A stretch of 64,000 nucleotides of DNA from Minisyncoccota bacterium. Its GTDB lineage: Bacteria; Patescibacteriota; Minisyncoccia; Phycocordibacterales; UBA1006. The stretch spans positions 42,972 through 106,971 of the forward strand of contig JAQVEZ010000003.1 of NCBI GenBank assembly GCA_028697455.1, read 5' to 3'. Both the position numbers and the translations under genes were made by a program. Under the pieces are notes generated by a model. That model saw only the letters and a program-made list of their open reading frames with translations, did not search any database and had not been told where the DNA came from. Each line of letters opens with the position of its first letter. Within the stretch, counting starts at the first letter, position 1. Shown here in pieces: positions 3,928-59,576 of this stretch.

Positions 3928-3984
3928 GATCTCATTATACGCTAAAAAATATAAATAAAAAAACACTCACAAACTGAGCATCTT

Positions 3985-4920: not shown

Positions 4921-4925
4921 AATTA

Positions 4926-4957
4926 AAACTGTCTACTTAACCGTAGGCAGTTTTTTA
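4926..4957 (+). terminator. intrinsic terminator (ctgtctac-loop-gtaggcag followed by TTTTTT)
   Basis: Hairpin plus T-run directly after the stop of the 4456-4920 ORF. Confidence 0.6.
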
Positions 4958-4994
4958 ACTTCAAAAAACACCCCTACTCTGTTATACTTCCCTT

Positions 4995-6383: not shown

Positions 6384-6410
6384 AACACCTTCTCATAAGG
6401 TGTTTTATTT

Positions 6411-6686
6411 TTAGAAAGTACGATCAAGATAATCATTAATATTCTTACTTGTTGTATCTATCTGAGACTGTATTGATGAAAAGAAGTTCTTAACTGAAGA
6501 ATTCATCTCAACAACAGCTGCCTGACTATCTGTAGGCAAATCATCAGCAATATCATCGAGGCCTTCTTCTCTTAATGTTTCTTCTGTCGTTGTTTGTTCA
6601 AGGGTAGTACTTTTTTGAAAGGCGCTGTACGCAAAATAAGCAAGGAGCGCAATGATAATAATAACGAAAAGGTTTTTCATACTCAT
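6411..6686 (-). CDS. small membrane-anchored or secreted hypothetical protein
   Basis: N-terminal hydrophobic segment FVIIIIALLAYFAYSAF. GGTATACT lies 8 nt upstream of the ATG. Confidence 0.45.
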   Translation of the reverse strand: MSMKNLFVIIIIALLAYFAYSAFQKSTTLEQTTTEETLREEGLDDIADDLPTDSQAAVVEMNSSVKNFFSSIQSQIDTTSKNINDYLDRTF

Positions 6687-6708
6687 CTAGTATACCTTAA
6701 AAAACAAA

Positions 6709-7770: not shown

Positions 7771-7843
7771 ATCTTATTCGTAACACTCTCTGCGCTAAAA
7801 ATACACAACCCGTATTATGTACTTTTTACCCAAAAAGGGTTTT

Positions 7844-11108: not shown

Positions 11109-12428
11109 TTAATTCTCTTGTCCCTGCATTGCAGAAAGGAGTTGTTGATAGAGTCCCAAAAGTTCAGTATAGATATTTACCAAAGGATTGTTATTTATAA
11201 ATCCGTTTTGTGGTCTACAGAAAGTCGTTACTCCCGCTGAACAAAATCGGGTTCCGAAAATGCTTGAGGATTTTGAAGAAGTTGATGACTCTTCAGAGTT
11301 TTTAAAAATAAAGATAGATTGATTATAATAACTACCATTTGCATCCCCGAGAATGACAAACTGTCCATCTGCATAAATAATTTGGGAGGCGTTCATATAA
11401 TCACTTGTACCAAGAGTGGGGATAAGGTACTCCCACACTTCCCCTCCAAAGGAATAAGTGAGGACTTCGTTCCATTCACTGTCCTGCATATAACCAACCC
11501 CGATATAAAGACCGTCTCCATAGGTAATTGATCGTGGGGCAAAAGAAGCATCTCCTGAAACCATTTTTGCTATCCAGTCTGTCCCGTTTTTTGAAGTAAA
11601 AATTTGGTGATCACCTCCAATGATAAACTCCCCATTAAGATACTCCATTTGCCCTCTAAGATGACCTTCTAATCCCTCAATAGTATTAAACCCTGTTGTT
11701 TCATCAGGAATAAACCAATGGGCCCCTCCATCTTGAGAGAGAAGAGGTTCAAAAATAATCGGAGACATCATATCTTCCCGAGTCGAAAGAAGCGATATCA
11801 AAAGAACATCTCCATTTTGGTCATATCCTGCAGCAAGGTGCGAGGATACACCAAGAGGATTATCTTCTACCTCTCCTTTACTCCAGTGCACTCCATCATT
11901 TGAATAAATAATATAGGGTTCTTCTGTTCCTATCATCATATTTCTTTCAATCCCAACCGCCACAAATAATCCTCTGTCGTTAGAAGTATCATACACATAA
12001 GAAACCTTACTTAATTCTCCGTAAGTTTTTGTTATTTCTGGTAATGAGGTTTCAGAGGTATTTTGATCATAAGAATTCCAATTCTCCCCATCACTCGAGG
12101 TATAAACAAGAGGAAGATCATTTGAACGTTTTCCAACAGCAACAAACTTACCATCCCCATAACTAACCCATGACAGATTACCTATTATACCTGTACTTTC
12201 CCAGTTAACAGCATCAGAGGAATAAGCTATCTGACCTCCTCCAACGAGGACATACATTTCATCTCCATAAGCAATAGATGAAAAGGATGATGGCCAAGAA
12301 TCATCAGGAAAAATCAAAGATTCACTCCACTCAACAGGTTGAGCAGAAGCTGTGTGTGGATTAATAAAACTTGTAAAACCTACTATAACAAATAATGATA
12401 GTAGTGACATAAAGGTGTATTTTTTCAT
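11109..12428 (-). CDS. Secreted BNR/Asp-box repeat beta-propeller protein with a conserved two-cysteine C-terminal domain (paralog A)
   Basis: Signal peptide MKKYTFMSLLSLFVIVGF…ASA. Five or more S-x-D-G-x-x-W Asp-box motifs (YSSDAVNWES, TSSDGENWNS, YSNDGVHWSKG, LSQDGGAHWF, TSKNGTDWIAK) alternate with YGDGKFVAVG-type strands. The C-terminus SSIFGTRFCSAGVTTFCRPQNGFINNNPLVNIYTELLGLYQQLLSAMQGQEN is shared with the ORFs at 37368 and 56623. Confidence 0.7.
   Translation of the reverse strand: MKKYTFMSLLSLFVIVGFTSFINPHTASAQPVEWSESLIFPDDSWPSSFSSIAYGDEMYVLVGGGQIAYSSDAVNWESTGIIGNLSWVSYGDGKFVAVGKRSNDLPLVYTSSDGENWNSYDQNTSETSLPEITKTYGELSKVSYVYDTSNDRGLFVAVGIERNMMIGTEEPYIIYSNDGVHWSKGEVEDNPLGVSSHLAAGYDQNGDVLLISLLSTREDMMSPIIFEPLLSQDGGAHWFIPDETTGFNTIEGLEGHLRGQMEYLNGEFIIGGDHQIFTSKNGTDWIAKMVSGDASFAPRSITYGDGLYIGVGYMQDSEWNEVLTYSFGGEVWEYLIPTLGTSDYMNASQIIYADGQFVILGDANGSYYNQSIFIFKNSEESSTSSKSSSIFGTRFCSAGVTTFCRPQNGFINNNPLVNIYTELLGLYQQLLSAMQGQEN
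11122..11275. repeat. Copy 1 of a ~150-bp conserved 3'-end cassette (encodes the shared C-terminal domain) of the BNR paralogs
   Basis: CTGCATTGCAGAAAGGAGTTGTTGATAGAGTCCCAA…GTTCAGTATAGATA… is ~85-90% identical to 37386-37540 and 56637-56790, while the remainder of the genes has diverged. Confidence 0.7.
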
Positions 12429-12488
12429 ACTCTTCTAGTATACCAACCTTAGCTTTGAATGCAAAACAAAAAACACCTCTCGGTGTCT

Positions 12489-17899: not shown

Positions 17900-19079
17900 A
17901 GTCTGATTGAGAAAAAAGATCTTTTTGTTCTGAAATGTAATGAGCCAAGAGTTTCATTTCGATATCTTCTATCTCATTAAAAACATAAGGGAGAGCGTTT
18001 TCAAAAGAAATTAATTCAATTCTCCCGTTGGTAAGAAGGTGTTCTCCAAGCTCGTCATGAGAAAGGATCATTCTTTCAAACCACAAAGAAAGGGTGTCGT
18101 GTGTTTTAAGAACCAAGGTGTTAGGCAAAAGACCTTTTTTACTAAATTCATCGAGAGCATTATAAAAAGGTTTTAACCATGAGTGAAAAGCTTTTTCTGA
18201 ATCTTCCTCAAGAAGCTCTGCATAACTATCAGTAAAAGCTCTCTCGGTAAAAAGCTCAAGCGTATTTCGTGCTTCAAGCATTGAAAGTCCCATTCGAGAG
18301 GATAAATCCCTCAAAATAGTATGAACCCCAGAAGGAAAAACCCCGAAGTTACGGAGGTGATCGTTTTCAATAATAAGAATTTCAGTAAGCTCTGTTCCAA
18401 TGTCAAAAATTAAAGCATTATCGTTGTGAGGAAGGAGTGTTTTTACTCCATAATAAAAAACATAAGGATTAGAGAGAAAAATAGGGTCTCGGTGAAAATG
18501 TTTTTGAATAATCCCCTCAAAACTTTTCTTTGTTTTTCGAGACATCACAGAAACCAAAGAATGCACCTCAAATGTTCTCGCTATTGTCCCCAGAGGTTCT
18601 TTTACAGGATATCCATTAATATAATAATCCAGAACTTTTCGATCAATGAGCTCAACGTCATACTGATGATAGTTGAGATTTTTCTTTAAAGAAGTTTTGA
18701 GATCTTTTTGTTCTAGTTTTGCGAGAAGGTTTTCGTCAACAGTAAAAGCGTCTCCTTTTTTAGGTTGGTATTGGGTTATTCTTTTTTGGGAAGAAATCCA
18801 AGGGCTTCCTACGTTACAAAAAATACCCGAAATAGGAACGAGTGCGTGTAAATAAATTTCAGTAGCAAGAGCATCAAAAGTTTTTTGAGCTTTTTTCCAA
18901 AAGCGTTGATAATCGTATTGAGCTCCGTCAGAAATATCTTTTCGTAATGAGATAAACGAACGAACAAAATCAACCTCTCCTTTTTTGGTAAAGGAATACT
19001 CCAAAACGGACCCTCCAACACTTCCGCTGTCGATATCAAAAACAACAATATATTTTTTTTGAGGATTTTCCTTGTTCAT
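17883..19079 (-). CDS. FtsA/PilM-like actin-family (ASKHA) ATPase
   Basis: N-terminal YIVVFDIDSGSVGGSVLEY resembles phosphate-1, and ALIFDIGTELTEILIIENDHLRNFGVFPSGVHTI resembles the phosphate-2/adenosine motif of FtsA/PilM. The start was set at MNKEN (19079) because TGCTATACT lies 14 nt upstream; the ORF caller's start at 19127 would lie upstream of that promoter. Confidence 0.4.
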   Translation of the reverse strand: MNKENPQKKYIVVFDIDSGSVGGSVLEYSFTKKGEVDFVRSFISLRKDISDGAQYDYQRFWKKAQKTFDALATEIYLHALVPISGIFCNVGSPWISSQKRITQYQPKKGDAFTVDENLLAKLEQKDLKTSLKKNLNYHQYDVELIDRKVLDYYINGYPVKEPLGTIARTFEVHSLVSVMSRKTKKSFEGIIQKHFHRDPIFLSNPYVFYYGVKTLLPHNDNALIFDIGTELTEILIIENDHLRNFGVFPSGVHTILRDLSSRMGLSMLEARNTLELFTERAFTDSYAELLEEDSEKAFHSWLKPFYNALDEFSKKGLLPNTLVLKTHDTLSLWFERMILSHDELGEHLLTNGRIELISFENALPYVFNEIEDIEMKLLAHYISEQKDLFSQSDYDTFS

Positions 19080-19151
19080 ATCTTTGCTCTCACAGTATAG
19101 CACAAAAGAAGAAACGCTTTCAAACAAACAAAAACAAGCATTATGTGCTTG

Positions 19152-20966
19152 TTATTGCTGTAGCTCCATGCGCACACGGCGAACACCAGCTGAGGAGGCT
19201 TCTTCTTTTACTATGCGCATCTTCCCAAATGAGGCTATTTCAGAAAGCTTTTCAACATGAGGACCACCACACAACTCTCGAGAATAAATGATACCGTTCT
19301 GATCTTTCATTGTATAAACCTGAACATCATCTGGGTACTTCTCCCAAAAAGAACCGACAACACTTGGGTCATTTTGAGCATCGGCTTTTTTCATGTGGTC
19401 GATACTTACGGTAGCATTACTTTCAATAGCTTCTTGAACATAGTGCTCTACCTGATCAAGGATTTCTCGGCTAACTTTTTCTGGGTGTGTAAAGTCAAAA
19501 CGCGAACGCTCTTCGGTGATATTTGACCCTTTTTGATGAACACTCTCCCCCAAAAATTTTCGTAACCCTGCAAGCATAAGATGCGTTGCTGAATGGAGGG
19601 CTCTAATTTTAGGAGTGTCTTTTTCAAGTCCTCCTTTAAATTTTTTTTCAGCTCCCATACGAGAGATATCTTGATGAGCTTTTTTTTCTTTTTCATAAAC
19701 AAGAAGAGCGGCATCATCAATAATGAGCTCAAACTCTTTTGCAATTCTTTTTGTTATCGAAAGAGGAAGCCCATGGGTCTGCTCAAGATTAACAAGAAAA
19801 GATCCTTCAAGATGAGACCCTCCATCTTCTTTGAATTTCTTGAGAAGATTTTTTCCTTTTTCTACAAGTTTTTCTACCTTAAGCATCTCCCCCTCAAAAG
19901 AAGAAATAATATTATTCAAAAGCTCTTGTGAGAGATCCTTAAAATAAAGATCCTTGTACATATCTTTGACCAAAAGGACAAGCTCCTTTATTTCTTTGTG
20001 AGAGAATCCTATCTCCTTTGCAGAAAAATAAATTCTCCTCAAGATCCTTCTTAATACATACCCTCTTCCTGTATTTGAAATAAAAACCCCCTCTGAAGCT
20101 AAAAAAGTTGCTGATTTAATATGATCAGAAATAATACGAGCGTGGCGTTCGTTATAATGAAGAGCGTGCTCTTTCAAATAATTCATAAAAGGAAGATAGA
20201 GATCCGTTTCAAAAATATTTGAAACGCCCTGCATCACAGCACTAACTCGTTCAAGTCCTGAGCCGGTATCAACATTTTTTTGTGGAAGATTCCCTTTAAT
20301 ATGTCCGTCTTCCAATTGGAAAGTCATGAAGACGTCGTTCCAGATTTCAACAAGTTTCTGGTCTTCATCAGCTTGTTCAAAAGCCTCTGGACTCAAATCA
20401 CCAAGATTCCCGGTGAGGTCATAAAACATTTCGGTTGAAGGCCCTGCTGGAGAGTTTGGCCCTGCTGTCCACCAATTATCTTTTGAGTCTCGAAAATAAA
20501 TTCTCTTTTCTGGAATAAACTTTTTCCAAATTTCAACAGATTCAAGATCCCGAGGAACCTCTTCGTTTCCAGAGAATACGGTAATGTACAACCTTGCAGG
20601 ATCAAGTCCGAGCCCTTCGTCACTATCAGTAAGAAACTGGTATGACCAAGCGATAGCGTCTTCCTTAAAATAATCCCCCAAAGACCAGTTTCCCAACATC
20701 TCAAAAAAAGTTGCATGAGTATTGTCTCCTACCTCATCAAGGTCATTAGTACGAAGACACTTTTGAGAGCTTGCGAGTCTTTTTCCAAGTGGATGATCTT
20801 CTCCAAGGAGATACGGAATAAGTGGCTGCATTCCCGCAGTATTAAAAAGTGTTGCGTTCGTTGCGTGAGGGGCTTCTTCGGTAATCAAAGATGCTGAATC
20901 AATAACAACATGATTTCGTTTTTCAAAAAATGTTAAAAATCTTTTACGGATTTCATTGGACTTCAT
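19152..20966 (-). CDS. alaS: Alanyl-tRNA synthetase, short form: catalytic plus editing domains, lacking the C-terminal C-Ala domain
   Basis: …FFEMLGNWSLGDYFK… catalytic core and HSATHLMLAGL…CGGPHV editing motifs. TATACT lies 8 nt upstream of the MKSNEIR start. Confidence 0.88.
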   Translation of the reverse strand: MKSNEIRKRFLTFFEKRNHVVIDSASLITEEAPHATNATLFNTAGMQPLIPYLLGEDHPLGKRLASSQKCLRTNDLDEVGDNTHATFFEMLGNWSLGDYFKEDAIAWSYQFLTDSDEGLGLDPARLYITVFSGNEEVPRDLESVEIWKKFIPEKRIYFRDSKDNWWTAGPNSPAGPSTEMFYDLTGNLGDLSPEAFEQADEDQKLVEIWNDVFMTFQLEDGHIKGNLPQKNVDTGSGLERVSAVMQGVSNIFETDLYLPFMNYLKEHALHYNERHARIISDHIKSATFLASEGVFISNTGRGYVLRRILRRIYFSAKEIGFSHKEIKELVLLVKDMYKDLYFKDLSQELLNNIISSFEGEMLKVEKLVEKGKNLLKKFKEDGGSHLEGSFLVNLEQTHGLPLSITKRIAKEFELIIDDAALLVYEKEKKAHQDISRMGAEKKFKGGLEKDTPKIRALHSATHLMLAGLRKFLGESVHQKGSNITEERSRFDFTHPEKVSREILDQVEHYVQEAIESNATVSIDHMKKADAQNDPSVVGSFWEKYPDDVQVYTMKDQNGIIYSRELCGGPHVEKLSEIASFGKMRIVKEEASSAGVRRVRMELQQ

Positions 20967-45600: not shown

Positions 45601-46578
45601 TTATTCACCACAGCTGTTGTCAAGAGCAGCTCTGGTAAAGAGTTCAACATTCCTTTGTATAAAGTTCTTGATCCCTTCTATACTGCAATCATATTCATCG
45701 ATAGAATATGGCACGGAATCTCTATAAGCAATTTTATGAACGGCTTCTGCTACACCGATTACATACGCGAGTTCTACGCGAACTTCTTGTGCTTTATATT
45801 TTTGTAATAACTGCTGTGCAATATATTGTGCATATTGCGCTCCGCTACGATCAACTTTGGTCCAATCTTTTCCCGAAAAGGCACCGCCGCCAACAGGAAC
45901 TCGTGGTCCATACTGATCAAGGACAATCTTTCTCCCTGTTAATCCTGTATCTGCTTCAAAGCCACCAATGTGCCATTCGCCAGCAGGATTGATAAAGAGT
46001 TTGGTATCACCAGAAAACACTTTCTTGCCCTGACACCAATCAATAACATCAGCCTCGAGCTCTTGTGTCGTCGTTCCTTGAAAACTCGCGACAATGTGCG
46101 TAATCTCGTGTTTATCGTTAATAGTAATTTGAGTTTTCCCATCAGCGGGATGTCTTTCGTATAGATAGTTACATAAGGACTTTGCAAGATATAATTCTTG
46201 AGGAATCATTTCTTCGTTGTGGTTACAGGCATAGCCAATGACAACCCCTTGGTCTCCTGCACCTCCCTGATCAACTCCAAAAGCTATTTCAGGAGACTGT
46301 TGAGCAATGTGAACAGTTACCTTAAAAGTATTAACACCCGTAACATCAGCGACAATCTGTTCATATTCTGATTGAGTAATGTTCCCCGTGCTTGTAACTT
46401 CACCAACAATAAAAACTCTTCCGTGACCGCCGAGCGTTTCAACAGCAACGCGACTGTGTGGGTCTTGGGAGAGAAAGAGCTCTAATATTGCATCTGATAT
46501 GCGGTCGCACATTTTATCAGGATGTTTTGGTGATACGTATTCTGCCGTGAAAGAAGCTTTGATTATATTGTTATTCAT
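45601..46578 (-). CDS. metK: S-adenosylmethionine synthetase (short, 325 aa)
   Basis: …HPDKMCDRISDAILE…, GAGDQGVVIGYA, GGGAFSGKDWTKVDRSGAQYAQYIA, and ELAYVIGVAE all match MetK signature blocks. Confidence 0.88.
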   Translation of the reverse strand: MNNNIIKASFTAEYVSPKHPDKMCDRISDAILELFLSQDPHSRVAVETLGGHGRVFIVGEVTSTGNITQSEYEQIVADVTGVNTFKVTVHIAQQSPEIAFGVDQGGAGDQGVVIGYACNHNEEMIPQELYLAKSLCNYLYERHPADGKTQITINDKHEITHIVASFQGTTTQELEADVIDWCQGKKVFSGDTKLFINPAGEWHIGGFEADTGLTGRKIVLDQYGPRVPVGGGAFSGKDWTKVDRSGAQYAQYIAQQLLQKYKAQEVRVELAYVIGVAEAVHKIAYRDSVPYSIDEYDCSIEGIKNFIQRNVELFTRAALDNSCGE

Positions 46579-47487: not shown

Positions 47488-47522
47488 CTAAAACACCCAA
47501 TACTTCGTATTGGGTGTTTAAG
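47488..47522 (+). terminator. intrinsic terminator (AAACACCCAATAC-TTC-GTATTGGGTGTTT)
   Basis: 13-bp perfect stem after the stop of the 47157-47483 ORF. It marks the approximate left edge of the AT-rich island. Confidence 0.75.
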
Positions 47523-47683
47523 ATCATATGCTCCCCTTGTTGGACGCATTCAGAACCCTTAATTGGAATAAGATAGAACAAGAATTAGAATTTAGCGGTA
47601 TTCTAAGTTTCTTTGAAATTAGTTATACTTAAATAGCAGGCTCGCAGGGAGCCACCCCTGAAGGTGGCTGAAAATTAATTAGG

Positions 47684-47794
47684 CGTTGATTTTCGATGTT
47701 CTTTGACGAGTACCTTCTTGCCGTTTTTCAGCGTACGGTAATGTTTACGAACTTCAACAATCTTTTTGCCTTTCTCTGTTTTCGCCATAGAAAG
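47684..47794 (-). CDS. tiny basic protein (36 aa) with weak resemblance to the N-terminal half of ribosomal protein bL33. Divergently transcribed from the 514-aa island gene.
   Basis: Manual translation gives MAKTEKGKKIVEVRKHYRTLKNGKKVLVKEHRKSTPN (compare bL33 MAK…HFYTTTKNKR…). Not in the ORF track. Confidence 0.25.
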
Positions 47795-47821
47795 CTTTAA
47801 GATTAAAGTTTTTAATAAATA

Positions 47822-47862
47822 CTGTCATCGACCTTTGACAGCTAGTTGTCATCTGTCGCAGA
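47822..47862. promoter_or_regulatory. operator-like cluster of TGTCA/TGACA half-sites (CTGTCA-N8-TGACAG plus a direct-repeat TGTCATC) in the divergent promoter region of the island
   Basis: Read directly between the 47794 (-) and 47958 (+) starts. Confidence 0.35.
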
Positions 47863-47957
47863 TTGAAACAATACTTACCTTCCGAAGTGGCTCTCTATGA
47901 GCCTTTTCTTATTTTATACTTATTGAAAATACTTGTAAACTATTGTAAAGTGTAAGA

Positions 47958-49502
47958 ATGAGCGGTTTACATTTTGATATTGAAAACAATTCAAAAAATT
48001 ACCTAGATGAAAAGGAGCTTTTTATGCTTTTCTATTTATTAAAGAATAAGCGTATATCTACATATAGCGGTGTGTTTGTACCTAACCCTAAGCAAGTACT
48101 TATCAAGCCAGATACTACCCCTGAGGATTTATGGGAAAGAATGAATTACAGAGGGCAATCTGTAGTTGTTTTAAATCACTTGTTAAATCTGGGAAAAAAT
48201 TTAGATGAGAAAGGTTTTTCAATATATTGCAACGCTGACTATTCTCTAGTAGAAGGTGGATTTTTAACTGATGATTTTCATAAAGAAATGTACGATTATT
48301 TGAATCTTTCTGAATCTGAACGCAGAAAAGATACTATACTGAATAAAGAACAGAAAGACTTTCTTGAAGAGGTAATTGCAGGAAAACTAGACTTAAAAGA
48401 TATTAATACAAGTGTGCAGTTTACTAAGTTAGCAAACCCTCCCGTTGAATGTTATAGAGAATGTATTTTAAATAAAAAAGCTGATGAAAGATTTATTGAG
48501 TTAATAAATAAGCTTGTTACTAATTATGACGGCGGATTATGGAAAACAGAAGATATAGAAGAATTTTTAAATATCTGGTATCAATCAAATAAAAAACTGG
48601 TAGTAGACAGCGAGCAAGGAATTTTTTATGAAGATAATCAAAAAAAGCTATCTCGTTTAATTTTTGAAAATGTTGAGATTCAATTGGTTTTAAAAGATAC
48701 TCAAAAACTAGAAGAATATTTAAATGACTATCTCAATCTCTATAAAAATGACAAATTAAAAGGATTAAGCAGAACAGGGCTTACTAGAAGTTTCTTTTCT
48801 TCGGGTTATGCGGAAGATATAAATAAAAGCTTTTATGGATACAAAAGACAAAGAGATATTTTAATAAAGCATATTGAAGCTGTTTATAACGAATACCAAA
48901 GAAAAGACTTAGAAATTACAAATCCATACATAGAACCTGAGTATATTGGCGATGAAAAAATCGGTACGGTAAAAATAAAACCAGTTGAAGAAAACAAAGA
49001 AAGAGATTCTTTTCTCTTCGTACATACAATGATAACTCTTGAAAAAGAAATGTATTTAAATATTAATGATTATTCATATGGTACTAAGGAGATGTTTGAT
49101 TTATACGACAGAGGTTTTTTGTTTGAAGTTACTTTAAATTCAATGCCTATTGAAGAAGAAAATAGTAAAGAACCTACAGTACAAAATGATACGGTTTATT
49201 TTGATACTGAGGTTTCAAAGATTTTATGTAATGGGAATGAAATAAAAATAACAAAAGGTAAAGATATTTATTATGCAATTAAGTATCTATTTGAAAGAAA
49301 GGATACTTATGAAGAATGTTTTTATGATGAAATTAGAGATGATTCTGAGTTAAATGACGGCAAAAAAAGGACTGACAAAAATATTTATGATGCCTTAATG
49401 CAATTCAACAAAAGACTTATAAATAAAGGAATTGATGACCTTTTTGTGATTAATTTTCGCTCAATAAAGATAAGAAATAAATACAAGATAGTTACACTAT
49501 AA
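47958..49502 (+). CDS. hypothetical protein, 514 aa, island cargo with no recognisable domain
   Basis: Long ORF at ~30% GC, followed by the terminator hairpin AATCC-TTCG-GGATT plus T-run at 49541-49562. Confidence 0.5.
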   Translation: MSGLHFDIENNSKNYLDEKELFMLFYLLKNKRISTYSGVFVPNPKQVLIKPDTTPEDLWERMNYRGQSVVVLNHLLNLGKNLDEKGFSIYCNADYSLVEGGFLTDDFHKEMYDYLNLSESERRKDTILNKEQKDFLEEVIAGKLDLKDINTSVQFTKLANPPVECYRECILNKKADERFIELINKLVTNYDGGLWKTEDIEEFLNIWYQSNKKLVVDSEQGIFYEDNQKKLSRLIFENVEIQLVLKDTQKLEEYLNDYLNLYKNDKLKGLSRTGLTRSFFSSGYAEDINKSFYGYKRQRDILIKHIEAVYNEYQRKDLEITNPYIEPEYIGDEKIGTVKIKPVEENKERDSFLFVHTMITLEKEMYLNINDYSYGTKEMFDLYDRGFLFEVTLNSMPIEEENSKEPTVQNDTVYFDTEVSKILCNGNEIKITKGKDIYYAIKYLFERKDTYEECFYDEIRDDSELNDGKKRTDKNIYDALMQFNKRLINKGIDDLFVINFRSIKIRNKYKIVTL

Positions 49503-49566
49503 AACACTATAAGTAAAACAAAATAAAGCATTTTATATCCTGAAGTTAATCCTTCGGGATTTTATT

Positions 49567-49731
49567 TATGCAGGAAAATATCAAACAAGAAAATAATCTA
49601 GAAAACCTTGATTTTGAATCAAAGCAAAATCTTGTTGGTTTTTTTGATTTGCTCTTGAAAATTGATATGCGAATCAATCCTGATTTATACAAAGAAGATT
49701 ATCAACCTAAAAAAGAACAAGAAATATGATA
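49567..49731 (+). CDS. small acidic protein (54 aa) translationally coupled (ATGA overlap) to the Rep-like gene
   Basis: Manual translation gives MQENIKQENNLENLDFESKQNLVGFFDLLLKIDMRINPDLYKEDYQPKKEQEI. The stop overlaps the start of the 49726 gene. Confidence 0.3.
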
Positions 49732-50829
49732 GATACAATTATTATCAACATTACTAGAAGCAAGGTAAGAATGCTTTCAGGAGAACGCTGGGATTTAATT
49801 GCGAAAAAGGACTTTTATTCCAAGTTTGCAAGGAACCCCACCAAAAGACAAAAAGAAAGTGATAGATACTACCCTCGTTTGACAGGAGTACAAAGAGCAG
49901 GAAGTGAATCAATCGTAAAGATAGAGTTTTCAATTCCCAAGCTTCTATACTTAAACAATCTTGATGAGCTAGAAGAGAAAGATTTTAAAGAAGTAATTAA
50001 AACACTTCACGAAAGACTGAAAGATATGAGCGTCTTAATATTTGAAAAAGACCTTATCAACGCAGATGTATCTGCAGTTCATTATTCAAAAAACATAGTG
50101 CTAACAAGTGGATATACAGCAAAACATATTATTTCAGAATTGCAGAAAATAAATCTTAATAAACTGAATGATTTAACAAAGACAAGGTTTATGAATAGTG
50201 GAGAAAGTTTACAAGGATATTCAATTTCTAACTCATTTGTCTTTTATGACAAAATATCTGACTTACAAAAAGATGAAAAACGAGCGATAGACAGAGAACA
50301 GAATCCGTATCAAAGGAGTTTATTTAGCTCTTTAAAAGATGAAGAAATACTACGCTTTGAAGTAAGACTTTCACAAAAGAGAAAGTTGAATACTCTATTC
50401 AAGCAATATGGATTCAAAACGAACCCTACATTTCAAGAAGCTTTTTCACTAGATAAAGCTTTAAAAGTGATGACTGAGTATTGGAATGAAAAAATAGATA
50501 AAAACAAATATGTTTTATTTACTTATTCTGAAAACACAGAATCATTACTAAAAAAGATTAGTATTGCACGACCAAAATCACGACCGCAAACATTACTATC
50601 ACTTCTAGGATTAGTATCTTTTGCAAAAGATAATAAAGGCGGATTAAGAGAATTAAGGACAATACTTACTGCACGAATTACTGATAGAGCTTGGTATTCA
50701 ATAGTTAAAAATTTGAAGACTATTTCAAAAGATTTGGAATCATTAAGCGAGCTAGATTGGTATCAGGAAGTTTCAAAACAGATTAAAAATTATAAGCCAT
50801 ACAAGACAAAAAAGTTATCAAAAGCATAG
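49726..50829 (+). CDS. Rep_trans-like rolling-circle replication initiator (pT181 RepC / Tn916-Orf20-like)
   Basis: ESLQGYSISNSFVFYDKISDLQKDEK resembles the RepC block …[22 protein letters not shown], and EILRFEVRLSQKRKL resembles HLWRVEIELKRD. Confidence 0.45.
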   Translation: MIDTIIINITRSKVRMLSGERWDLIAKKDFYSKFARNPTKRQKESDRYYPRLTGVQRAGSESIVKIEFSIPKLLYLNNLDELEEKDFKEVIKTLHERLKDMSVLIFEKDLINADVSAVHYSKNIVLTSGYTAKHIISELQKINLNKLNDLTKTRFMNSGESLQGYSISNSFVFYDKISDLQKDEKRAIDREQNPYQRSLFSSLKDEEILRFEVRLSQKRKLNTLFKQYGFKTNPTFQEAFSLDKALKVMTEYWNEKIDKNKYVLFTYSENTESLLKKISIARPKSRPQTLLSLLGLVSFAKDNKGGLRELRTILTARITDRAWYSIVKNLKTISKDLESLSELDWYQEVSKQIKNYKPYKTKKLSKA

Positions 50830-50870
50830 ATTTGCAATGTAAACTATTGTCAAGTATAATATAAACAATT

Positions 50871-51692
50871 ATGACTAAAGAAATTAAAAATAAACAAGAC
50901 ATTACCCTCTTTGAACAACAAGAAGTCAGAAAAGTATGGCACAAAGAAAAGTGGCATTTTGCAATTATTGATGTTGTAAAAATTCTTACTGATTCTGTAC
51001 AACCTGAAGGGTATATCAAGGATATGAGAAGGCGTGATAAGGAGCTTTCTGAAGGGTGGGGGCAAATTGCCACCCTCCTTTCCATAGATACAAAAGGAGG
51101 TAAACAAAAGATGAATTGTGCTGACTTGGAAGGTATTTTCCGTATTATTCAATCAATTCCCTCTCCAAAAGCAGAACCATTTAAACGCTGGCTCGCAAAA
51201 GTTGGTAAAGAGCGAATTGATGAAATAGCGAATCCTGAATTGGCAGTGAACAGAGCAAAAGAAATTTACGAAAAGAAAGGATATGAAAAAGACTGGATTG
51301 ATAAACGAATGCGAGGTATTGCTGTTAGAAATACTTTAACAGACGAATGGAAAGAAAGAGATATAAAAGGTATTGAATACGGAATCCTGACAAACGAAAT
51401 TTACAAAGGTACTTTTGAACAAGACCATAAATCTTTAATGAAGATAAAAGGTTTGGATAAAAAGAAAGGAGACAATTTACGAGACCATATGGGAGATGTT
51501 GAGCTTATTTTAACAATGCTCGCTGAAGCGACTTCAACAGAAATTACAAAGAGCAAAGACTCAAAAGGAATGAATGAGATAAAGCAGGATGTAAAGAAAG
51601 GAGGACAAATTGCTGGTAATACACGAAAGAAGATTGAAGCTGAGACTGGTAAAAAAGTTATTACTAAAAGTAACCGCAAAGAATTGAAATAA
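50871..51692 (+). CDS. DinD-like / Bro-N domain protein (DNA-damage-inducible protein D family)
   Basis: Bro-N-like N-terminus EVRKVWHKEKWHFAIIDVVKILTD, and a C-terminal block KGLDKKKGDNLRDHMGDVELILTMLAEATSTEITKSKD that matches E. coli DinD KGLKKNQKILDHMGSTELAANLFRATQTEEKLKRD. Confidence 0.6.
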   Translation: MTKEIKNKQDITLFEQQEVRKVWHKEKWHFAIIDVVKILTDSVQPEGYIKDMRRRDKELSEGWGQIATLLSIDTKGGKQKMNCADLEGIFRIIQSIPSPKAEPFKRWLAKVGKERIDEIANPELAVNRAKEIYEKKGYEKDWIDKRMRGIAVRNTLTDEWKERDIKGIEYGILTNEIYKGTFEQDHKSLMKIKGLDKKKGDNLRDHMGDVELILTMLAEATSTEITKSKDSKGMNEIKQDVKKGGQIAGNTRKKIEAETGKKVITKSNRKELK

Positions 51693-51693
51693 T

Positions 51694-51879
51694 ATGAGCA
51701 ACAAACAAGAGAAAGAATTTTACAAATCGGAAGATTTAGCTGAAAAGCTAGATGTAAACATAATGACGATTTATCGTTATATCAAAGCTGGCAGATTGAA
51801 AGCACATAAGATTGGTAAGGAATTTAGAATTGAACAAAAAGAATTTTTGAATTTTCTTAAAAATACAAAAACCAAATAA
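51694..51879 (+). CDS. Excisionase-family HTH (HTH_17 / MerR-like) DNA-binding protein
   Basis: …VNIMTIYRYIKAGRLKAHKIGKEFRI… is the typical Xis/HTH_17 signature; 61 aa. Confidence 0.65.
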   Translation: MSNKQEKEFYKSEDLAEKLDVNIMTIYRYIKAGRLKAHKIGKEFRIEQKEFLNFLKNTKTK

Positions 51880-51884
51880 TCAAT

Positions 51885-52691
51885 ATGAGTAAGACAAAAA
51901 AAACTAAAATAAAGACTAACGTTGTATACAATGAAAGTTGTTTGGAAACTATGGCAAAAATGCCAGATAATTTTGTAGACTTAACTGTCACCTCTCCTCC
52001 TTATGATAATTTGCGGGATTATGGTGGAAACCCTTTTCCTTTTAAGGAGTTTATGTTAATTGCAAAAGAATTACACCGAGTAACTAAAGACGGTGGTATT
52101 GTTGTTTGGGTTGTTGGAGACCAAACCATAAAAGGAAATGAGACGGGAACATCTTTTAAACAAGCACTCTACTTCAAAGAAGTTGGTTTTAAATTGTTCG
52201 ATACAATGATTTACCAAAAGACTCCCAGGGGTGCAGTTGGTAATAATAAAACATATTGGCAAACTTTTGAGTATATGTTTGTTCTTAGTAAAGGAACCCC
52301 GAAAAGTATTAACTTAATTAAGGACAGAGAAAACAAAAGTGCTAGGGATGGAGATAATGGAACCAAGAGACTTAAGGATGGTACTCTGATTAAACAAAAA
52401 AGGAAGGGTTATTCACAATACGGCAGAAGAACTAACGTCTGGGAATATCTAATAGGCAGAGGACATTCTGCAAGTGATAATATTGCGTATGAACATCCAG
52501 CCATATTTCCAGAGAAACTAGCAGAAGACCATATTATTTCCTGGAGCAATAAAGGAGATATCGTTTATGACCCATTTATGGGAAGTGGAACAACAGCAAA
52601 GATGGCAATCATAAATAAAAGAAAATATATTGGAAGTGAGTTATTTAGTGAATATATAGAAATTATAAATAAAAGAATTAAAAATATATGA
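51885..52691 (+). CDS. DNA methyltransferase, N4-cytosine/N6-adenine family (pfam01555-like, beta-class order IV…I)
   Basis: Motif IV TVTSPPYDN near the N-terminus, …HPAIFPEKLAEDHI…, and motif I IVYDPFMGSGTTAKMA near the C-terminus. Confidence 0.8.
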   Translation: MSKTKKTKIKTNVVYNESCLETMAKMPDNFVDLTVTSPPYDNLRDYGGNPFPFKEFMLIAKELHRVTKDGGIVVWVVGDQTIKGNETGTSFKQALYFKEVGFKLFDTMIYQKTPRGAVGNNKTYWQTFEYMFVLSKGTPKSINLIKDRENKSARDGDNGTKRLKDGTLIKQKRKGYSQYGRRTNVWEYLIGRGHSASDNIAYEHPAIFPEKLAEDHIISWSNKGDIVYDPFMGSGTTAKMAIINKRKYIGSELFSEYIEIINKRIKNI

Positions 52692-53146
52692 TTTGTACAG
52701 AGTGTAATAAAAATGAAGCATTAAAGGGTGAATTTTGCGAATCTTGTTTTAATGAAACTAAAATATGCCGTAGGTGTCAAAAGCAGAAAAGTATTTTTGA
52801 ATTTGAAAAAAATCAAAAGAGTATAGCTGGAAAAGTTTCTAGGCGGGGTGAATGTAAAGAATGCAGAAGTTGGAAAAAACCAATAAACCAGAAAGCTCGT
52901 ACTGAATATGAAAAAAATAATCCGCCTACCCCGATAGGAGAATCGTTTACTTGTCCTGTCTGTAAGAAAACTTTTATTCGCCAATTCAAAAATGATGTTG
53001 TATTAGAGCACGACCACAAGACTGGTGAAATAAGGGGGTGGCTTTGCAGAATGTGTAACAATGGTATGGGTATGATGGAAGATGATATTGGAATTTTGGA
53101 ACGAGCAATTAAATGGCTAAAAGGTACATTATCCATATTTCTATAA
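52688..53146 (+). CDS. Endonuclease VII-family HNH (His-Me finger) nuclease, Cys-rich
   Basis: DHDHKTGEIRGWLCRMCNNGMG is the EndoVII/HNH core. There are multiple CxxC pairs, and the start overlaps the MTase stop (ATGA). Confidence 0.65.
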   Translation: MICTECNKNEALKGEFCESCFNETKICRRCQKQKSIFEFEKNQKSIAGKVSRRGECKECRSWKKPINQKARTEYEKNNPPTPIGESFTCPVCKKTFIRQFKNDVVLEHDHKTGEIRGWLCRMCNNGMGMMEDDIGILERAIKWLKGTLSIFL

Positions 53147-53150
53147 AAAT

Positions 53151-54650
53151 ATGAAAGCAATAATCTTAGCTAGAGTATCAACAGAAGAACAAAAAGAAGC
53201 TGGAAACTCATTGCCAGCTCAGATAACTCGCATAGAAAGATATTGTGAGCAACAGAAATTTGAGGTTATTGATACCTTTTCTTTTGACGAATCTGCATAT
53301 AAAACAAAAAGAGATGAGTTTGATAAAATACTAGATTTTCTAAAAACTAATAAAGAAAAAGTAGCAGTTTGTTTTGATAAGGTTGATAGACTTTCTCGTA
53401 ATGTTTTTGATAAAAGAGTTTCAGTGCTTTATGAAAAAGCTGTAAATGACGAGATTGAATTACACTTTGTATCAGACGGACAAGTTATTAATTCAAATAT
53501 GTCTGCTGTTGCGAAGTTTCAATTTGGAATGAGTCTAGGACTAGCGAAGTATTACTCAGACGCAATTTCAGACAATGTTAAAAGAGCTTTTGAAAAGATG
53601 AGAGCTGAAGGTAAATGGACTGGAAGAGTGAGAATCGGATACAAGAATACTACAGATGAAAATGGAAATAGAGATATTGCTTTAGATGAAGAGCGGGCTG
53701 ATTTGGTACATAGAATTTTTGAAATGTATGCGACAGGCAATCACTCTATTGCGAGTATCCTAAAAGAGATGAATAAACTTGGATTAAAAAGCTTAAATGG
53801 AAATAAGCTTTCTAAGAGTAATATTGACTTAATCTTGAATGATACTTTTTATTATGGAATGGCGTATTCCAAGAAATATAATTATTACTATCCGCACAAA
53901 TATGAAAAGCTTGTATCAAAGGAATTATTTTTTAAGTGTAAAGAAGTACGACTAGATAGAGCGAGAAAACCCTCAAAGGTTGATTCAAATAACTTTATAT
54001 TTAAAGGGCTTTTGACCTGCCAAAAATGTGGATGTTCTGTTACTCCTGAGATAAAGACTAAGAAGAGCGGAAAGCAATATATTTACTATTCTTGTACTAA
54101 TTCTAAGGGTATTTGCCAAAGAGAATATATACCTGAAAAGACCCTCCTAGAGCCGATTCTAGCCGTTCTAGAGCGATTTGAGAGCATTACACAGGATACA
54201 CAGGACTATCTTCTAAAAGAGCTTAGAAAGAATAATGAAGCTGAGGTTGAATTTCATAAAAAACAGCTAAAACGAATCAATACAGAATATCAAACAATAC
54301 AATCTAAAATTAGCAGACTTACAGACCTTCTTTTAGACAATAGTATTACTAAGGAATCATATGAAGAAAAACTGCAAGAGCTTAAACACAAACAGCTAAA
54401 GCTTGGAGTAGAAATTGATTTATATACAAAAGCAGATAAAGACTATTTATTGACTGTATCTAAAGTACTTTCTCTCGCTACAAGAGTAAAAACAATATTT
54501 GAAAGTTCTGAAATACACGAAAAACGAGCATTGTTAAATTATTTAATTCAGAACCCTACTCTAAACGGAAAAAAGCTATATTTTTCAATAGCTTCTCCAT
54601 ATAATTTGGTACTAGATTTAGCTAGTAAACCTACTTGGCTCCCCGGGTAG
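53151..54650 (+). CDS. Large serine recombinase (integrase)
   Basis: Catalytic AIILARVSTEEQ…DRLSRN resolvase domain, a recombinase domain, a zinc ribbon CQKCGCSV…YYSCTNSKGICQ, and a coiled-coil. The last 15 nt overlap tRNA-Asn on the opposite strand. Confidence 0.88.
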   Translation: MKAIILARVSTEEQKEAGNSLPAQITRIERYCEQQKFEVIDTFSFDESAYKTKRDEFDKILDFLKTNKEKVAVCFDKVDRLSRNVFDKRVSVLYEKAVNDEIELHFVSDGQVINSNMSAVAKFQFGMSLGLAKYYSDAISDNVKRAFEKMRAEGKWTGRVRIGYKNTTDENGNRDIALDEERADLVHRIFEMYATGNHSIASILKEMNKLGLKSLNGNKLSKSNIDLILNDTFYYGMAYSKKYNYYYPHKYEKLVSKELFFKCKEVRLDRARKPSKVDSNNFIFKGLLTCQKCGCSVTPEIKTKKSGKQYIYYSCTNSKGICQREYIPEKTLLEPILAVLERFESITQDTQDYLLKELRKNNEAEVEFHKKQLKRINTEYQTIQSKISRLTDLLLDNSITKESYEEKLQELKHKQLKLGVEIDLYTKADKDYLLTVSKVLSLATRVKTIFESSEIHEKRALLNYLIQNPTLNGKKLYFSIASPYNLVLDLASKPTWLPG

Positions 54651-54710
54651 GATTCGAACCTACGGCCAATCGGTTAACAGCCGATTGCTCTACCGCTGAG
54701 CTACCGGGGA
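54636..54710 (-). tRNA. tRNA-Asn (anticodon GTT), CCA encoded
   Basis: Manual fold gives a 7-bp acceptor TCCCCGG/CCGGGGA, a D-arm GCTC-AGCGGTA-GAGC, an anticodon stem ATCGG/CCGAT with loop CTGTTAA, and a T-arm GTAGG-TTCGAAT-CCTAC. An upstream promoter TTGCAT-17 bp-TATATT sits 8 nt before +1. Confidence 0.85.
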
Positions 54711-58655: not shown

Positions 58656-59576
58656 CTATTCGTTAAGTCCCTCTTTTGCGGTGATAATTTCAATTGACTG
58701 AATAATCATCTGAGAAACATCTTCATACATACTGAGTTCTGAAATTTCTTCCAAAGGAAACCAGCGCACATCATCAAGTCCTCCAGTTCCTTCTTCGAGC
58801 GTTGGTTGAGTAAAGCCTGCTTTTCCAAGGAAATAAGTGACATTTTTTCTTACAGGACCTCGTTCAGGGTGATAGGCGATATATTCGTTTTCTCCTATTT
58901 TTTGAACGATCTCAATATCCCAATTGGTTTCTTCTTTGACCTCGCGAATGGTTCCTTCTTCGAGCGTTTCTCCCTCATCGATTGTCCCCTTTGCAAGAGT
59001 CCAATATCCAAAAACATCATGCACCATCCCAAGATGGACAGCGCCTTGATCATCAACAGCGTATACTACAGCGGCTCCCTTATTATCAATAGGCATTTCT
59101 TCATAAGGAACGTCAGGAATCTTTTTCTTGGTTTCTTGATCTTTCCCTGGTTCACCCATTTCTTTATAGATAGCACCCATGACACCATTAACGAATTTAT
59201 TACTCTTGGCTCCTCCGAATTTTTTGGCAAGTTCAATAGATTCGTTGAGAGCAACCTTGGGAGGAATAAGTTCATTATCAGCAAAAAGAAGCTCGTAAAT
59301 TCCTAGACGAAGAATATTACGATCAACCACAGTAATTTTATCAATGGTCCAACCGGGTGAAGCTTTTTCGATAAGTTCATCAAGAATCACTCTTCTTGAT
59401 GCAATGGACTCGAGGTTTTCCAAAAGCTCATGGAGTTCCTTTTCATCGATGGTGACTTTTTGAAAAGAATTCACGATATATTCAAGATAATCCTTGAGCG
59501 AAGTATTTGAATAATTATGAACATCCCATTCGTAGAGTGTTTGTAAAAGAATCGTTCGATAGAGTTGTCTATTCAT
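58656..59576 (-). CDS. nusB: NusB-NUDIX fusion protein: a transcription antitermination NusB-like N-domain fused to a NUDIX hydrolase C-domain
   Basis: Residues 1-140 are NusB-like (…DRNILRLGIYELLF…AKKFGGAKSNKFVNGVMGAI…), and 170-300 are NUDIX with the box GTIDEGETLEEGTIREVKEETNW. It is a single uninterrupted ORF. Confidence 0.6.
   Translation of the reverse strand: MNRQLYRTILLQTLYEWDVHNYSNTSLKDYLEYIVNSFQKVTIDEKELHELLENLESIASRRVILDELIEKASPGWTIDKITVVDRNILRLGIYELLFADNELIPPKVALNESIELAKKFGGAKSNKFVNGVMGAIYKEMGEPGKDQETKKKIPDVPYEEMPIDNKGAAVVYAVDDQGAVHLGMVHDVFGYWTLAKGTIDEGETLEEGTIREVKEETNWDIEIVQKIGENEYIAYHPERGPVRKNVTYFLGKAGFTQPTLEEGTGGLDDVRWFPLEEISELSMYEDVSQMIIQSIEIITAKEGLNE

Follow-up and report, generated by a model that had tools for sequence, protein, structure and literature searches.

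The pSAM2/SLP1-type elements of actinomycetes are about 10 kb long, integrate at the 3' end of tRNA genes, encode int and xis along with a rep gene of the rolling-circle type, and exist either integrated or as a replicating circle. In this study, we report an element at positions 47530-54644 of a 64,000-nucleotide stretch of DNA (the window) from a Minisyncoccota bacterium (assembly GCA_028697455.1, contig JAQVEZ010000003.1, positions 42,972 to 106,971 of the forward strand), and consider it likely that this segment is the integrated copy of a small plasmid-like integrative element whose family is widespread in the Patescibacteria, the Candidate Phyla Radiation (CPR). The CPR make up a large share of bacterial diversity, and almost nothing is known of their plasmids or gene exchange. 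Like pSAM2 and SLP1, the window element is small and site-specific for a tRNA 3' end, and the pSAM2-type elements are its closest functional analogues. They use, however, a tyrosine integrase, a tRNA-identical core of tens of base pairs, an unrelated Rep and an FtsK-like Tra protein, whereas the window element has a large serine recombinase, a core of 5-10 bp, a protein with a predicted Rep_trans fold, and CPR hosts. The pairing of a tyrosine integrase with an FtsK/SpoIIIE-like Tra by which actinomycete integrative and conjugative elements are recognised is absent, and Pfam and PHROGs searches found no transfer gene within 47530-54650.

The integrases of phiC31, Bxb1, A118/LI and TP901-1 have the same three-domain, coiled-coil architecture as the window integrase. 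In the phiC31-type phages, as here, the integrase gene adjoins attP, and the identity between attP and attB is very short. The phiC31-type integrases target protein-coding genes or intergenic sites, whereas the clade of the window integrase targets tRNA 3' ends; unlike theirs, the open reading frame (ORF) of the window integrase crosses attP, so that its C-terminus depends on the integration state. tRNA genes have been called 'not known' as targets of serine integrases, and a survey that found 14 candidate cases among 297 asked for experimental proof (PMC7192596). Tyrosine-integrase islands of the Islander/TIGER class (PMC4383910, PMC7192596) resemble the window element in integrating at the 3' part of a tRNA gene and restoring that gene, and resemble its family in having the integrase at the tRNA-proximal end and in forming tandem or remnant arrays at the same tRNA (as at L002; loci in related genomes are given as L001 and so on). 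The displaced tRNA fragment measures about 5-10 nt in this family against 20-50 nt in those islands, so the standard searches for displaced tRNA fragments would miss these elements.

In the fusellovirus SSV1, attP lies inside the int gene, which is split on integration by a tyrosine-recombinase system. In mycobacteriophage BPs, attP lies inside the repressor gene, and integration by a tyrosine recombinase removes the C-terminal tag of the repressor (PMC4557955). Both are like the window element in that attP is located in a gene of the element, so that integration alters the product. SSV1 has its int disrupted and BPs its repressor affected, whereas the window element merely exchanges the last ~31 residues of its serine integrase.

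Borders of the element and its tRNA-Asn target

Comparison with relatives set both borders of the element, about 7.1 kb in length, to a single base. The features of the two junctions are as follows.

47491-47520: host hairpin terminator, AAACACCCAATAC-TTCG-GTATTGGGTGTTT, with flanking A and T runs, directly outside the element and left of the core
47530-47536: attL core GCTCCCC, direct repeat of the attR core
54638-54644: attR core GCTCCCC, at tRNA positions ~68-74 (acceptor 3' strand, discriminator and first C of CCA)
54636-54710, minus strand: intact tRNA-Asn(GTT) gene (ARAGORN; Rfam tRNA, 74.4 bits), identical to the tRNA of L099, the nearest relative of the host

Independent elements are alike from 47530 (GCTCCCC TTGTTGGACGCATTCAGAACC…) to '…CCTACTTGGCTCC' within the tRNA 3' end only; alignments of both ends showed that beyond these limits the flanks are unrelated sequence. 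An earlier note on this DNA, made from the sequence alone, had proposed an integrated mobile element of about 7 kb starting at 47530. Its left coordinate was exact, since the similarity among independent elements starts there, and the borders and relatives bear out the element itself. The calculated circular form is 7,108 bp.

The flanking direct repeats are 7 bp in the window (GCTCCCC), 10 bp in L001 (ACTTGGCTCC) and 5 bp in L002 (GCTCC), and L105 starts to diverge from the window immediately 3' of GCTCC. Because the repeats intersect at GCTCC and L105 diverges there, we infer that the crossover takes place inside GCTCC (tRNA positions ~70-74). The flanks of attL and attR diverge right outside the 7-bp core (ATAT versus CTTG), and no long direct repeats were present at the borders. 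The flanking repeats show the short crossover core, with otherwise dissimilar attP and attB, that is expected of large serine recombinases. The three marks of a tRNA-integrated island, an intact tRNA, an adjacent integrase and a displaced fragment repeat, were found as well, the repeat being merely 7 bp. For the window, attP was reconstructed as …ACTTGGCTCCCCTTGTTGGACGCATTCAGAAC…, with the predicted junction …AAACCTACTTGGCTCCCCTTGTTGGACGCATTCAGAACC…, and the predicted attB junction reads …GGGTGTTTAAGATCATATGCTCCCCGGGTAGGATTCGAACC….

The tRNA-Asn(GTT) gene is the sole tRNA across the 64-kb window (ARAGORN, Rfam), and its final 15 nt are the terminal codons of the integrase on the other strand (…TGG CTC CCC GGG TAG). 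This confirms an integrase stop 15 nt inside the tRNA 3' end and supports the attachment site at tRNA-Asn that the note had proposed. The note had called such an overlap typical; it is typical of tyrosine and not of serine integrases (PMC7192596), and is therefore an unusual feature here. The extreme 3' end of the tRNA, including the encoded CCA, comes from the element, and the gene stays intact. The terminator hairpin directly before the left core recurs at the left junctions of many relatives; it would be the native terminator of tRNA-Asn, stranded 7 kb away as the B arm of attL. Segment 47530-47560, which resembles a tRNA 3' end, was also considered as a decayed tRNA copy. This was rejected, the segment being the P' arm and tail-coding sequence that is kept in all elements.

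The element-side arm P' holds TTCAGAAC, which encodes F-R-T, and the tRNA-side arm B' holds the T-loop TTCGAAC. The distance from the core G to a T-loop-like GAAC is 23 nt in 38 P' arms but 18 nt in 59 tRNA (B') arms. The zinc-ribbon domain of large serine integrases is said, in work by Rutherford et al. from 2013, to bind a motif whose distance from the core is 5 bp greater in attP than in attB. This recognition model fits the constant offset of GAAC by 5 bp, which also suggests that the integrase may read the T-arm of the tRNA. Such reading would explain why close relatives use Asn, Gln, Asp, His or Tyr genes. At tRNA-Asp targets the core is altered to match (GCGGGA in L032 and L021). attB sites made of the near-universal acceptor and T-arm are relevant to integrase-based genome engineering.

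The six 1-kb windows of 48-54 kb have a GC content of 0.28-0.34 against 0.36-0.41 in nearly all other windows, as the AT-rich segment of the note implied, and the sign of the GC skew flips within 48-54 kb. The element genes from 47958 to 54650 form a run of ORFs on the plus strand (514, 53, 367, 273, 61, 268, 152 and 499 aa), all present where the note had placed them, and the flanking genes on both sides are on the minus strand. The flanking truB product is 100% identical to a protein of a 'Candidatus Pacebacteria bacterium' metagenome-assembled genome (MAG); this identifies the host as a CPR bacterium, as the note had supposed.

A contig that is chimeric at the tRNA, so that the element does not truly lie between these flanks, would call the locus itself into question. 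The gene order around it differs in L099, and in many metagenome contigs from relatives the sequence breaks off at the integrase or the tRNA, both of which speak for such an artefact. However, both junctions match dozens of independent genomes, including the complete chromosomes CP011209 (L015) and OZ246399 (L071), and what these share is host terminator, core and detached tail on the left and integrase, core and tRNA on the right. A chimera could have brought in a different left flank but would leave the integrated state unaffected, and we regard an assembly artefact as extremely improbable.

The integrase and its detached C-terminal tail

Two parts of the integrase gene lie at opposite ends of the integrated element.

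53151-54650, plus strand: large serine integrase in its integrated (shortened) form, 499 aa, with Resolvase, Recombinase and Zn_ribbon_recom domains
47537-47632, plus strand: detached integrase tail, 31 codons and a stop, LLDAFRTLNWNKIEQELEFSGILSFFEISYT, doubling as the P' arm of attP

The identification as a large serine recombinase was confirmed by Pfam (PF00239, 3e-22; PF07508, 2e-15; PF13408, 1e-9). R8 and S10 are invariant in alignments of 25 and 35 sequences, and the AlphaFold2 (AF2) model shows catalytic, recombinase and zinc-ribbon/coiled-coil domains, with long helices at 348-452 within the zinc-ribbon region.

The final codons of the window integrase, …TWLPG*, are the antisense reading of the tRNA-Asn 3' end. 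When the ends of the element are joined at the core, the ORF is lengthened in frame from 499 to 529 aa, and the same operation gives 532 aa in L001 and 531 aa in L002. A profile of the tail (E<1e-6) located it at the far left, upstream of Rep, in 33 integrated loci, and the elements measure 5.4-11.5 kb from detached tail to integrase end. In the circular relatives L092 and L094 the tail is contiguous with the integrase. The ORF is therefore contiguous when the element is free and split when it is integrated, with attP inside the element's own gene. Since the integrase ORF spans attP, integration swaps a conserved 31-residue tail for a few tRNA-antisense codons. Integrases in databases mostly end in …WL[RP]G or …WLRGxDSNxRP, the antisense translation of the tRNA acceptor and T-arm, while by inspection about 14 of 120 end in …WLPLLDKFRTLNW… instead.

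The consensus of the tail is L-V-D-K-F-R-T-L/A-N-W-x-x-I-K-x-E/D-L-Q/E-F-S-G-I-L. Over 32 integrated loci, pairs of tails differ on average at 0.33 of first, 0.22 of second and 0.49 of third codon positions. Read in frame, 57% of single-nucleotide codon differences are synonymous, whereas the shifted frames give 26% and 14%. Judged by these substitution patterns, the tail evolves as coding sequence even though it is outside the integrase ORF in the integrated state; this constraint is most simply explained if the excised form is of importance to the element. That integrated and free forms encode different integrase C-termini offers a testable regulatory idea.

Distribution of the family

The family was scanned with an integrase alignment against one genome per species, and the 80 best loci of 224 relatives were read. 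A related integrase was found in 224 species-level genomes, and the best 80 loci are nearly all from CPR (Saccharibacteria, Paceibacterota, Gracilibacteria, Nomura-, Wolfe-, Uhr-, Doudna-, Magasanik-, Kaiserbacteria and others). Homologues of the integrase number more than 2,153 (E<=1e-30) and those of the 367-aa Rep-fold protein 822 (E<=1e-3), on the same contigs and from CPR-named sources. Mobile elements of this kind had been thought rarely documented in ultra-small bacteria; with at least 224 species-level genomes and more than 2,000 integrase homologues, the family is undescribed rather than rare. A full-text literature search found no description of it, although such a search cannot prove that none exists.

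The integrase adjoins a tRNA 3' end in at least 67 of the 80 loci, which were classed by the sequence that follows it.

54/80 loci: antisense tRNA called by ARAGORN (45 Asn, 4 Gln, 2 Asp, 2 His, 1 Tyr)
13/80 loci: tRNA acceptor/T-arm followed by a group I intron
5/80 loci: T-arm-like sequence alone
3/80 loci: contig ending at the integrase
5/80 loci: no tRNA-like sequence

Integrase and tRNA 3' end overlap in 53 of the 54 ARAGORN loci, the exception being L090, where they are 9 nt apart. Five of seven intron-class loci tested matched the group I intron model RF00028 of Rfam at 55-90 bits (the class comprises L012, L022, L025, L029, L039, L040, L056, L062, L063, L065, L068, L071 and L084). These introns interrupt the targeted tRNA, which ARAGORN then misses, so integration also occurs at intron-containing tRNA genes; the integrases next to these tRNA introns go unmentioned in a 2026 paper on the introns. 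That an entire clade of large serine integrases is devoted to tRNA 3' tips fills a gap left by the survey, in which use of tRNA genes by serine integrases was 'not reported previously' (PMC7192596).

A Rep homologue was present upstream of the integrase in 47 of the 51 genomes with at least 6 kb of upstream sequence, and the backbone runs in the order first gene, ~52-aa ORF, Rep, HTH_17, cargo, integrase. The window element is a genuine member of the family in its integrated state, and every part of its backbone is intact. Present in hundreds of CPR species, the family combines a compact and complete toolkit for integration, excision and replication with a variable defence slot, which makes it a candidate for the main small mobile element of the CPR and for vector design.

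Several related loci depart from the common arrangement. Four of the five loci without tRNA-like sequence have an intact attP-like junction. In L018, L047, L049 and L067 the integrase runs into an intact attP-type tail and not into a tRNA, and L067 has in addition a second full integrase and a fragment nearby (7650-8123, 18131-19588); these four could be tandem arrays, mis-binned circles or integrations elsewhere. In L010, whose element Rep is 82% identical to that of the window, a second, longer serine recombinase (597 aa, 4896-6689) lies directly upstream of the first gene of the element and ends in a tail-like segment (6588-6665). It may belong, as integrase, to an adjacent tandem element, or the locus may be a permuted circle. 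L002 shows two successive element left ends, 1.2 kb apart (586-700 and 1795-1843), the inner of which has a flank that looks like an integrase 3' end. The arrangement suggests that elements integrated in tandem at tRNA-Asn and that the older copy then decayed, keeping DUF1801 and NYN genes.

A protein with a predicted Rep_trans fold

Upstream of the cargo genes, the element carries a protein that may start its replication, together with a small partner.

49537-49560, plus strand: hairpin and T-run, terminator-like, between the first gene and the 53-aa ORF
49568-49729, plus strand: 53-aa ORF with ATGA overlap, translationally coupled to Rep and conserved family-wide (…LDFESKQNLVGFFDLLLKIDMRINPDLYKEDY…)
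49726-50829, plus strand: 367-aa protein of predicted Rep_trans fold, putative rolling-circle initiator or relaxase, with candidate catalytic Y174-D175-K176

The Y174-D175-K176 motif is invariant in the family of the 367-aa protein and is the candidate catalytic site. The best structural matches of the predicted model are plasmid replication initiators. Among 39 Rep relatives, eight have sub-threshold matches to Rep_trans (PF02486; best 3.7e-4) and one matches PF05144 Phage_CRI (1.4e-6). The earlier note's Rep_trans-like initiator is accepted here for its modelled fold, with the sub-threshold relatives, but not for family membership. The Rep_trans initiators of pT181 and pC221 (PDB 4CWC, 4CIJ) share only ~10-12% identity with the 367-aa protein which, unlike these Reps and the MOBT relaxases, has an extra C-terminal helical domain (~240-355) and the coupled 53-aa partner. 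Its model starts with a beta-strand at residue 2, without an N-terminal helix-turn-helix (HTH). The position and pairing of the hairpin at 49537-49560 are kept in relatives; it was considered as a replication origin and was not assigned as one, being conserved yet terminator-like.

MOBT relaxases are members of the Rep_trans superfamily. Because they have the same fold, a relaxase role is the main rival for Rep. The element would then be integrative and mobilizable, its 367-aa protein acting mainly as a MOBT-type relaxase that nicks an origin of transfer (oriT); the circle would be exported through the chromosomal MPF_FATA-like type IV secretion system (T4SS) of CPR, with replication secondary, as in ICEBs1 and Tn916. 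In keeping with this, the element has no transfer genes of its own, the Rep family evades standard profiles, CPR are reported to have conjugation-type T4SS with almost no detectable relaxases, and a coupling-protein-like ATPase is encoded in the window at 1165-3966. That gene, however, is found among housekeeping genes and outside any T4SS cluster in the window, the model lacks the N-terminal HTH that MOBT relaxases carry, the closest structures are replication initiators, and stand-alone circular contigs in several samples are more readily explained by an abundant episome that replicates than by a rare intermediate of excision. We think a mainly relaxase function unlikely, and slightly favour a Rep that drives plasmid-like replication rather than, or besides, transfer; the two functions can both hold.

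The ATPase gene (1165-3966, minus strand) encodes a 933-aa protein with type IV coupling-protein signatures (TrwB_AAD_bind, TraG-D_C and a TraD-like NCBIfam) and sits alone among ndk, rplU, cysS, dnaJ, dnaK and grpE.

A wider proposition joins three parts: that CPR have in these elements their main mobilizable or self-transferable DNA, that their Rep is the 'missing relaxase' of the ubiquitous chromosomal T4SS, and that the tail swap is a directionality switch, in which the full-length enzyme would integrate and the shortened enzyme, with the HTH_17 protein, would excise. Taken jointly this is doubtful. The divergent Rep_trans-fold protein nevertheless bears on why CPR have conjugation-like T4SS without recognisable relaxases, and if the missing-relaxase reading is true, the chromosomal T4SS of Patescibacteria would be a genuine DNA-transfer machine.

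Free circles, mobility and proposed mechanism

Close relatives of the element occupy other tRNA genes or other host alleles, as follows.

L001: integrase 94% identical; at tRNA-Gln(CTG), next to dnaX
L002 and L003: integrase 82% identical; at tRNA-Asn
L105: integrase 99% identical; at another tRNA-Asn allele, three stems of which carry compensatory changes

Integrases that are 94% and 99% identical at another tRNA or host allele indicate recent movement, and from these copies the window element is likely to be mobile at present. More distant relatives occur as free circles. They were recovered as contigs that encode three of the integrases with the alternative ending. A 9,406-bp circle was assembled in two samples, as L092 and L093, which are exact rotations of each other and whose ends overlap by 30 bp, and L094 (55-bp overlap), L095 and L096 are exact rotations of one 6,729-bp circle. 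Gene order on the circles is integrase, (accessory genes), first gene, Rep, HTH_17, restriction-modification (R-M) cargo, and back to the integrase, and their attP (in L094, …ctttGGCTCCCCTTGCTGGACAAGTTCAGAAC…) matches the attP reconstructed for the window. The circular contigs indicate that relatives exist as free circles abundant enough to assemble alone. The proposal of an episome or integrative plasmid is supported by both groups of relatives.

We propose that the large serine integrase recombines attP with the outermost 3' tip of a tRNA gene, which in the window is tRNA-Asn. attP straddles the 3' end of the integrase's own gene, crossover would fall in GCTCC, and the element re-supplies the exchanged tRNA bases and the CCA, so that the tRNA is kept intact. 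Excision would restore the full-length 529-aa integrase, and the excised circle would be kept by rolling-circle replication, started by the 367-aa Rep_trans-fold protein and its coupled 53-aa partner.

A number of results weigh against this account. Integrase identity between the circular relatives and the window element is only ~60%, and circular assemblies could in principle derive from tandem copies. The AF2 model is uninformative on the tail, which in the 529-aa form has a predicted local distance difference test score (pLDDT) <50. An ATG in the host flank at 47528 is in frame with the tail and opens a potential 34-aa ORF (47528-47632, plus strand; MLPLLDAFRTLNW…); it could yield a separate 34-aa peptide, so that selection on the tail need not act solely in the circle. 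Relatives vary at this codon, however: some have ATG, TTG or GTG, and others CTG or TGG. The Rep assignment depends on a predicted fold at ~10-12% identity: the 367-aa protein had no significant match in Pfam, PHROGs, NCBIfam (E<=0.01) or PADLOC, its family profile matched none of the PDB sequences, and no origin or nick site was identified for it. Neither the attP junction pattern of the window, searched in viral and JGI metagenome contigs, nor the predicted empty-site pattern with both flanks was found, and no exact protein match of the integrase or of the neighbouring 347-aa protein is on record. The junction and empty-site negatives are uninformative, as the collections searched lack the host species.

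The nearest host relative, L099 (truB 87% identical, ~90% nucleotide identity), has the same order of truB, 347-aa homologue and tRNA-Asn, with a tRNA that is 100% identical over 80 nt. Its similarity to the window ends at 54633, after which tRNA-Asn is followed by its own terminator and no integrase. L099 thus provides an unoccupied tRNA side and not a clean empty site, because its far side is rearranged; this too counts among the points above. The earlier note had suggested looking for an empty site and defining attL and attR against a tRNA-Asn locus without the insert. No clean site with both flanks was obtained, the tRNA side of L099 being unoccupied; the cores were set by alignments of relatives, and a locus without the insert was comparable on the tRNA side only.

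Neither the attP junction nor a clean empty site having been found for the window copy, the element might be a fixed, immobile relic which the host keeps for its defence genes, its integrase decaying or domesticated. The difference between the attL and attR flanks right outside the 7-bp core, and decayed remnants in the family such as the outer left end of L002, point the same way. But all backbone ORFs are intact, including the 31-codon tail, which has neither stop nor frameshift; GC is still 5-10 points under that of the host; nearly identical integrases (99% and 94%) occupy a different host allele and a different tRNA; and the failed searches carry no weight in collections without the host. 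We regard a relic as quite improbable, and retain the reading of an element that is probably still mobile.

Gene order in the window and in L099 differs beyond this locus. In L099 (1-11862) rpsI is directly followed by truB, and in the window the two are 43 kb apart, with breakpoints at 12463 and 56605. The block of truB, the 347-aa gene and tRNA-Asn is located beyond a segment of ~35 kb, and one breakpoint region adjoins the element. This is a rearrangement, or possibly a MAG misassembly. In addition, L099 has a GIY-YIG ORF (83 aa, 11902-12153, within 11850-12218) immediately 5' of tRNA-Asn that the window lacks; 13 nt of the tRNA 5' end (TCCCCGGTAGCTC) are duplicated at its flanks, and the ORF looks like a homing-endonuclease insertion at the same tRNA.

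Other element genes and cargo

The remaining genes and putative regulatory sequences of the element are listed in order.

47675-47788, minus strand: divergent basic ORF, 37 aa, MAKTEKGKKIVEVRKHYRTLKNGKKVLVKEHRKSTPN, possible regulator
47821-47842: palindrome CTGTCA-N8-TGACAG, the operator-like TGTCA cluster
47923-47955, plus strand: promoter-like box TTGAAA-17-TAAAGT, with the first copy of a 22-nt repeat at 47934-47955; conserved in L001-L003
47958-49502, plus strand: first gene, 514 aa, whose C-terminal ~100 aa are a module common to the first genes of many relatives
50832-50860, plus strand: promoter-like box TTGCAA-17-TATAAT, with the second repeat copy at 50838-50859; precedes the cargo/integrase operon
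50871-51692, plus strand: Bro-N protein, 273 aa, cargo (Pfam Bro-N, 5.9e-11; phrog_15286, 4e-81; PDC-S13, 7.7e-105)
51694-51879, plus strand: HTH_17 protein (excisionase/AlpA-type), 61 aa, backbone (Pfam HTH_17, 4e-11)
51885-52691, plus strand: N6/N4 DNA methyltransferase (MTase), cargo (Pfam, 1e-38; PADLOC oMTase, 1e-92, MTase_II)
52688-53146, plus strand: Endonuclease-VII/HNH nuclease, cargo (Pfam, 3e-17; PADLOC REase_II, 2e-20)

The 514-aa protein had no match in Pfam, PHROGs, NCBIfam or PADLOC, but the label of orphan given to it does not hold, as 81 representative clusters were found. Its C-terminal half is 50% identical to a 357-aa protein of L001, and the C-terminal module is present upstream of Rep in 21 of 66 loci. 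An OmpR-type winged helix at its C-terminus, an impression gained by eye, was dropped for want of Pfam support. The tiny divergent basic ORF is present as predicted; together with the palindrome it lies in a segment of ~290 bp (47640-47930) that is an insertion relative to L001 and L002.

The promoter scan as a whole gave no more than chance (30 against 31.7), and only the two boxes in the 22-nt repeat are noteworthy. They end 7-10 nt ahead of the ATGs of the two genes that follow, the first gene (7 nt) and the Bro-N gene; the mRNAs of the first gene and of the Bro-N operon may therefore be leaderless or nearly so.

The HTH_17 gene follows Rep in every relative inspected, and its product, confirmed as excisionase-family, is probably an excision/directionality factor or a regulator. 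The overlap of the MTase and HNH genes was confirmed at 4 nt, and these neighbours, MTase and endonuclease, are a putative R-M pair of Type II. Over its full length, the Bro-N protein matches PDC-S13, a candidate defence family in PADLOC, and it has no counterpart at that position in relatives; of its earlier designation as DinD/Bro-N, the Bro-N part is supported, and the DinD label has no NCBIfam support. The R-M systems of relatives are of Type II, IIG or III: Type III R-M occurs in L001, L002 and L006, Type II R-M of the MvaI_BcnI kind in L005 and of the BanI kind in L091, and an MmeI-like enzyme in L092. By these annotations, the variable slot between backbone and integrase carries defence genes, mainly R-M systems.

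Bro-N, HNH and MTase genes are common in phages, the Bro-N protein resembles small unannotated 'Bacteriophage sp.' contigs, and one Rep homologue matches Phage_CRI, the G2P family. These points would suit a prophage, a phage satellite (an option raised in the earlier note) or a filamentous inovirus-like phage that uses the Rep and encodes coat proteins in its small ORFs. But Pfam and PHROGs detected no virion or packaging genes in the window element, with capsid, portal, terminase, tail, Zot/pI ATPase and lysis genes all undetected, and virion, packaging and lysis genes are also absent from the Pfam domain tables of the relatives. The Zot/pI ATPase and coat proteins that accompany a G2P-type Rep in inoviruses were likewise not found in these searches. 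Moreover, the integrase, Rep and first gene have no relatives in IMG/VR, and backbone and R-M cargo take up the 6.7-9.4 kb of the circles. A phage of any of these kinds is very improbable, and the element is better read as plasmid-like.

Host genes flanking the element

The flanks of the element consist of housekeeping genes, including metK, truB, rnc, a nusB-NUDIX fusion, gyrB and uvrA. The NusB-NUDIX fusion protein of the host has 306 aa (58656-59576, minus strand). The host MetK is unusually short, with 325 aa (45601-46578, minus strand), and scores below the TIGR01034 cut-off.

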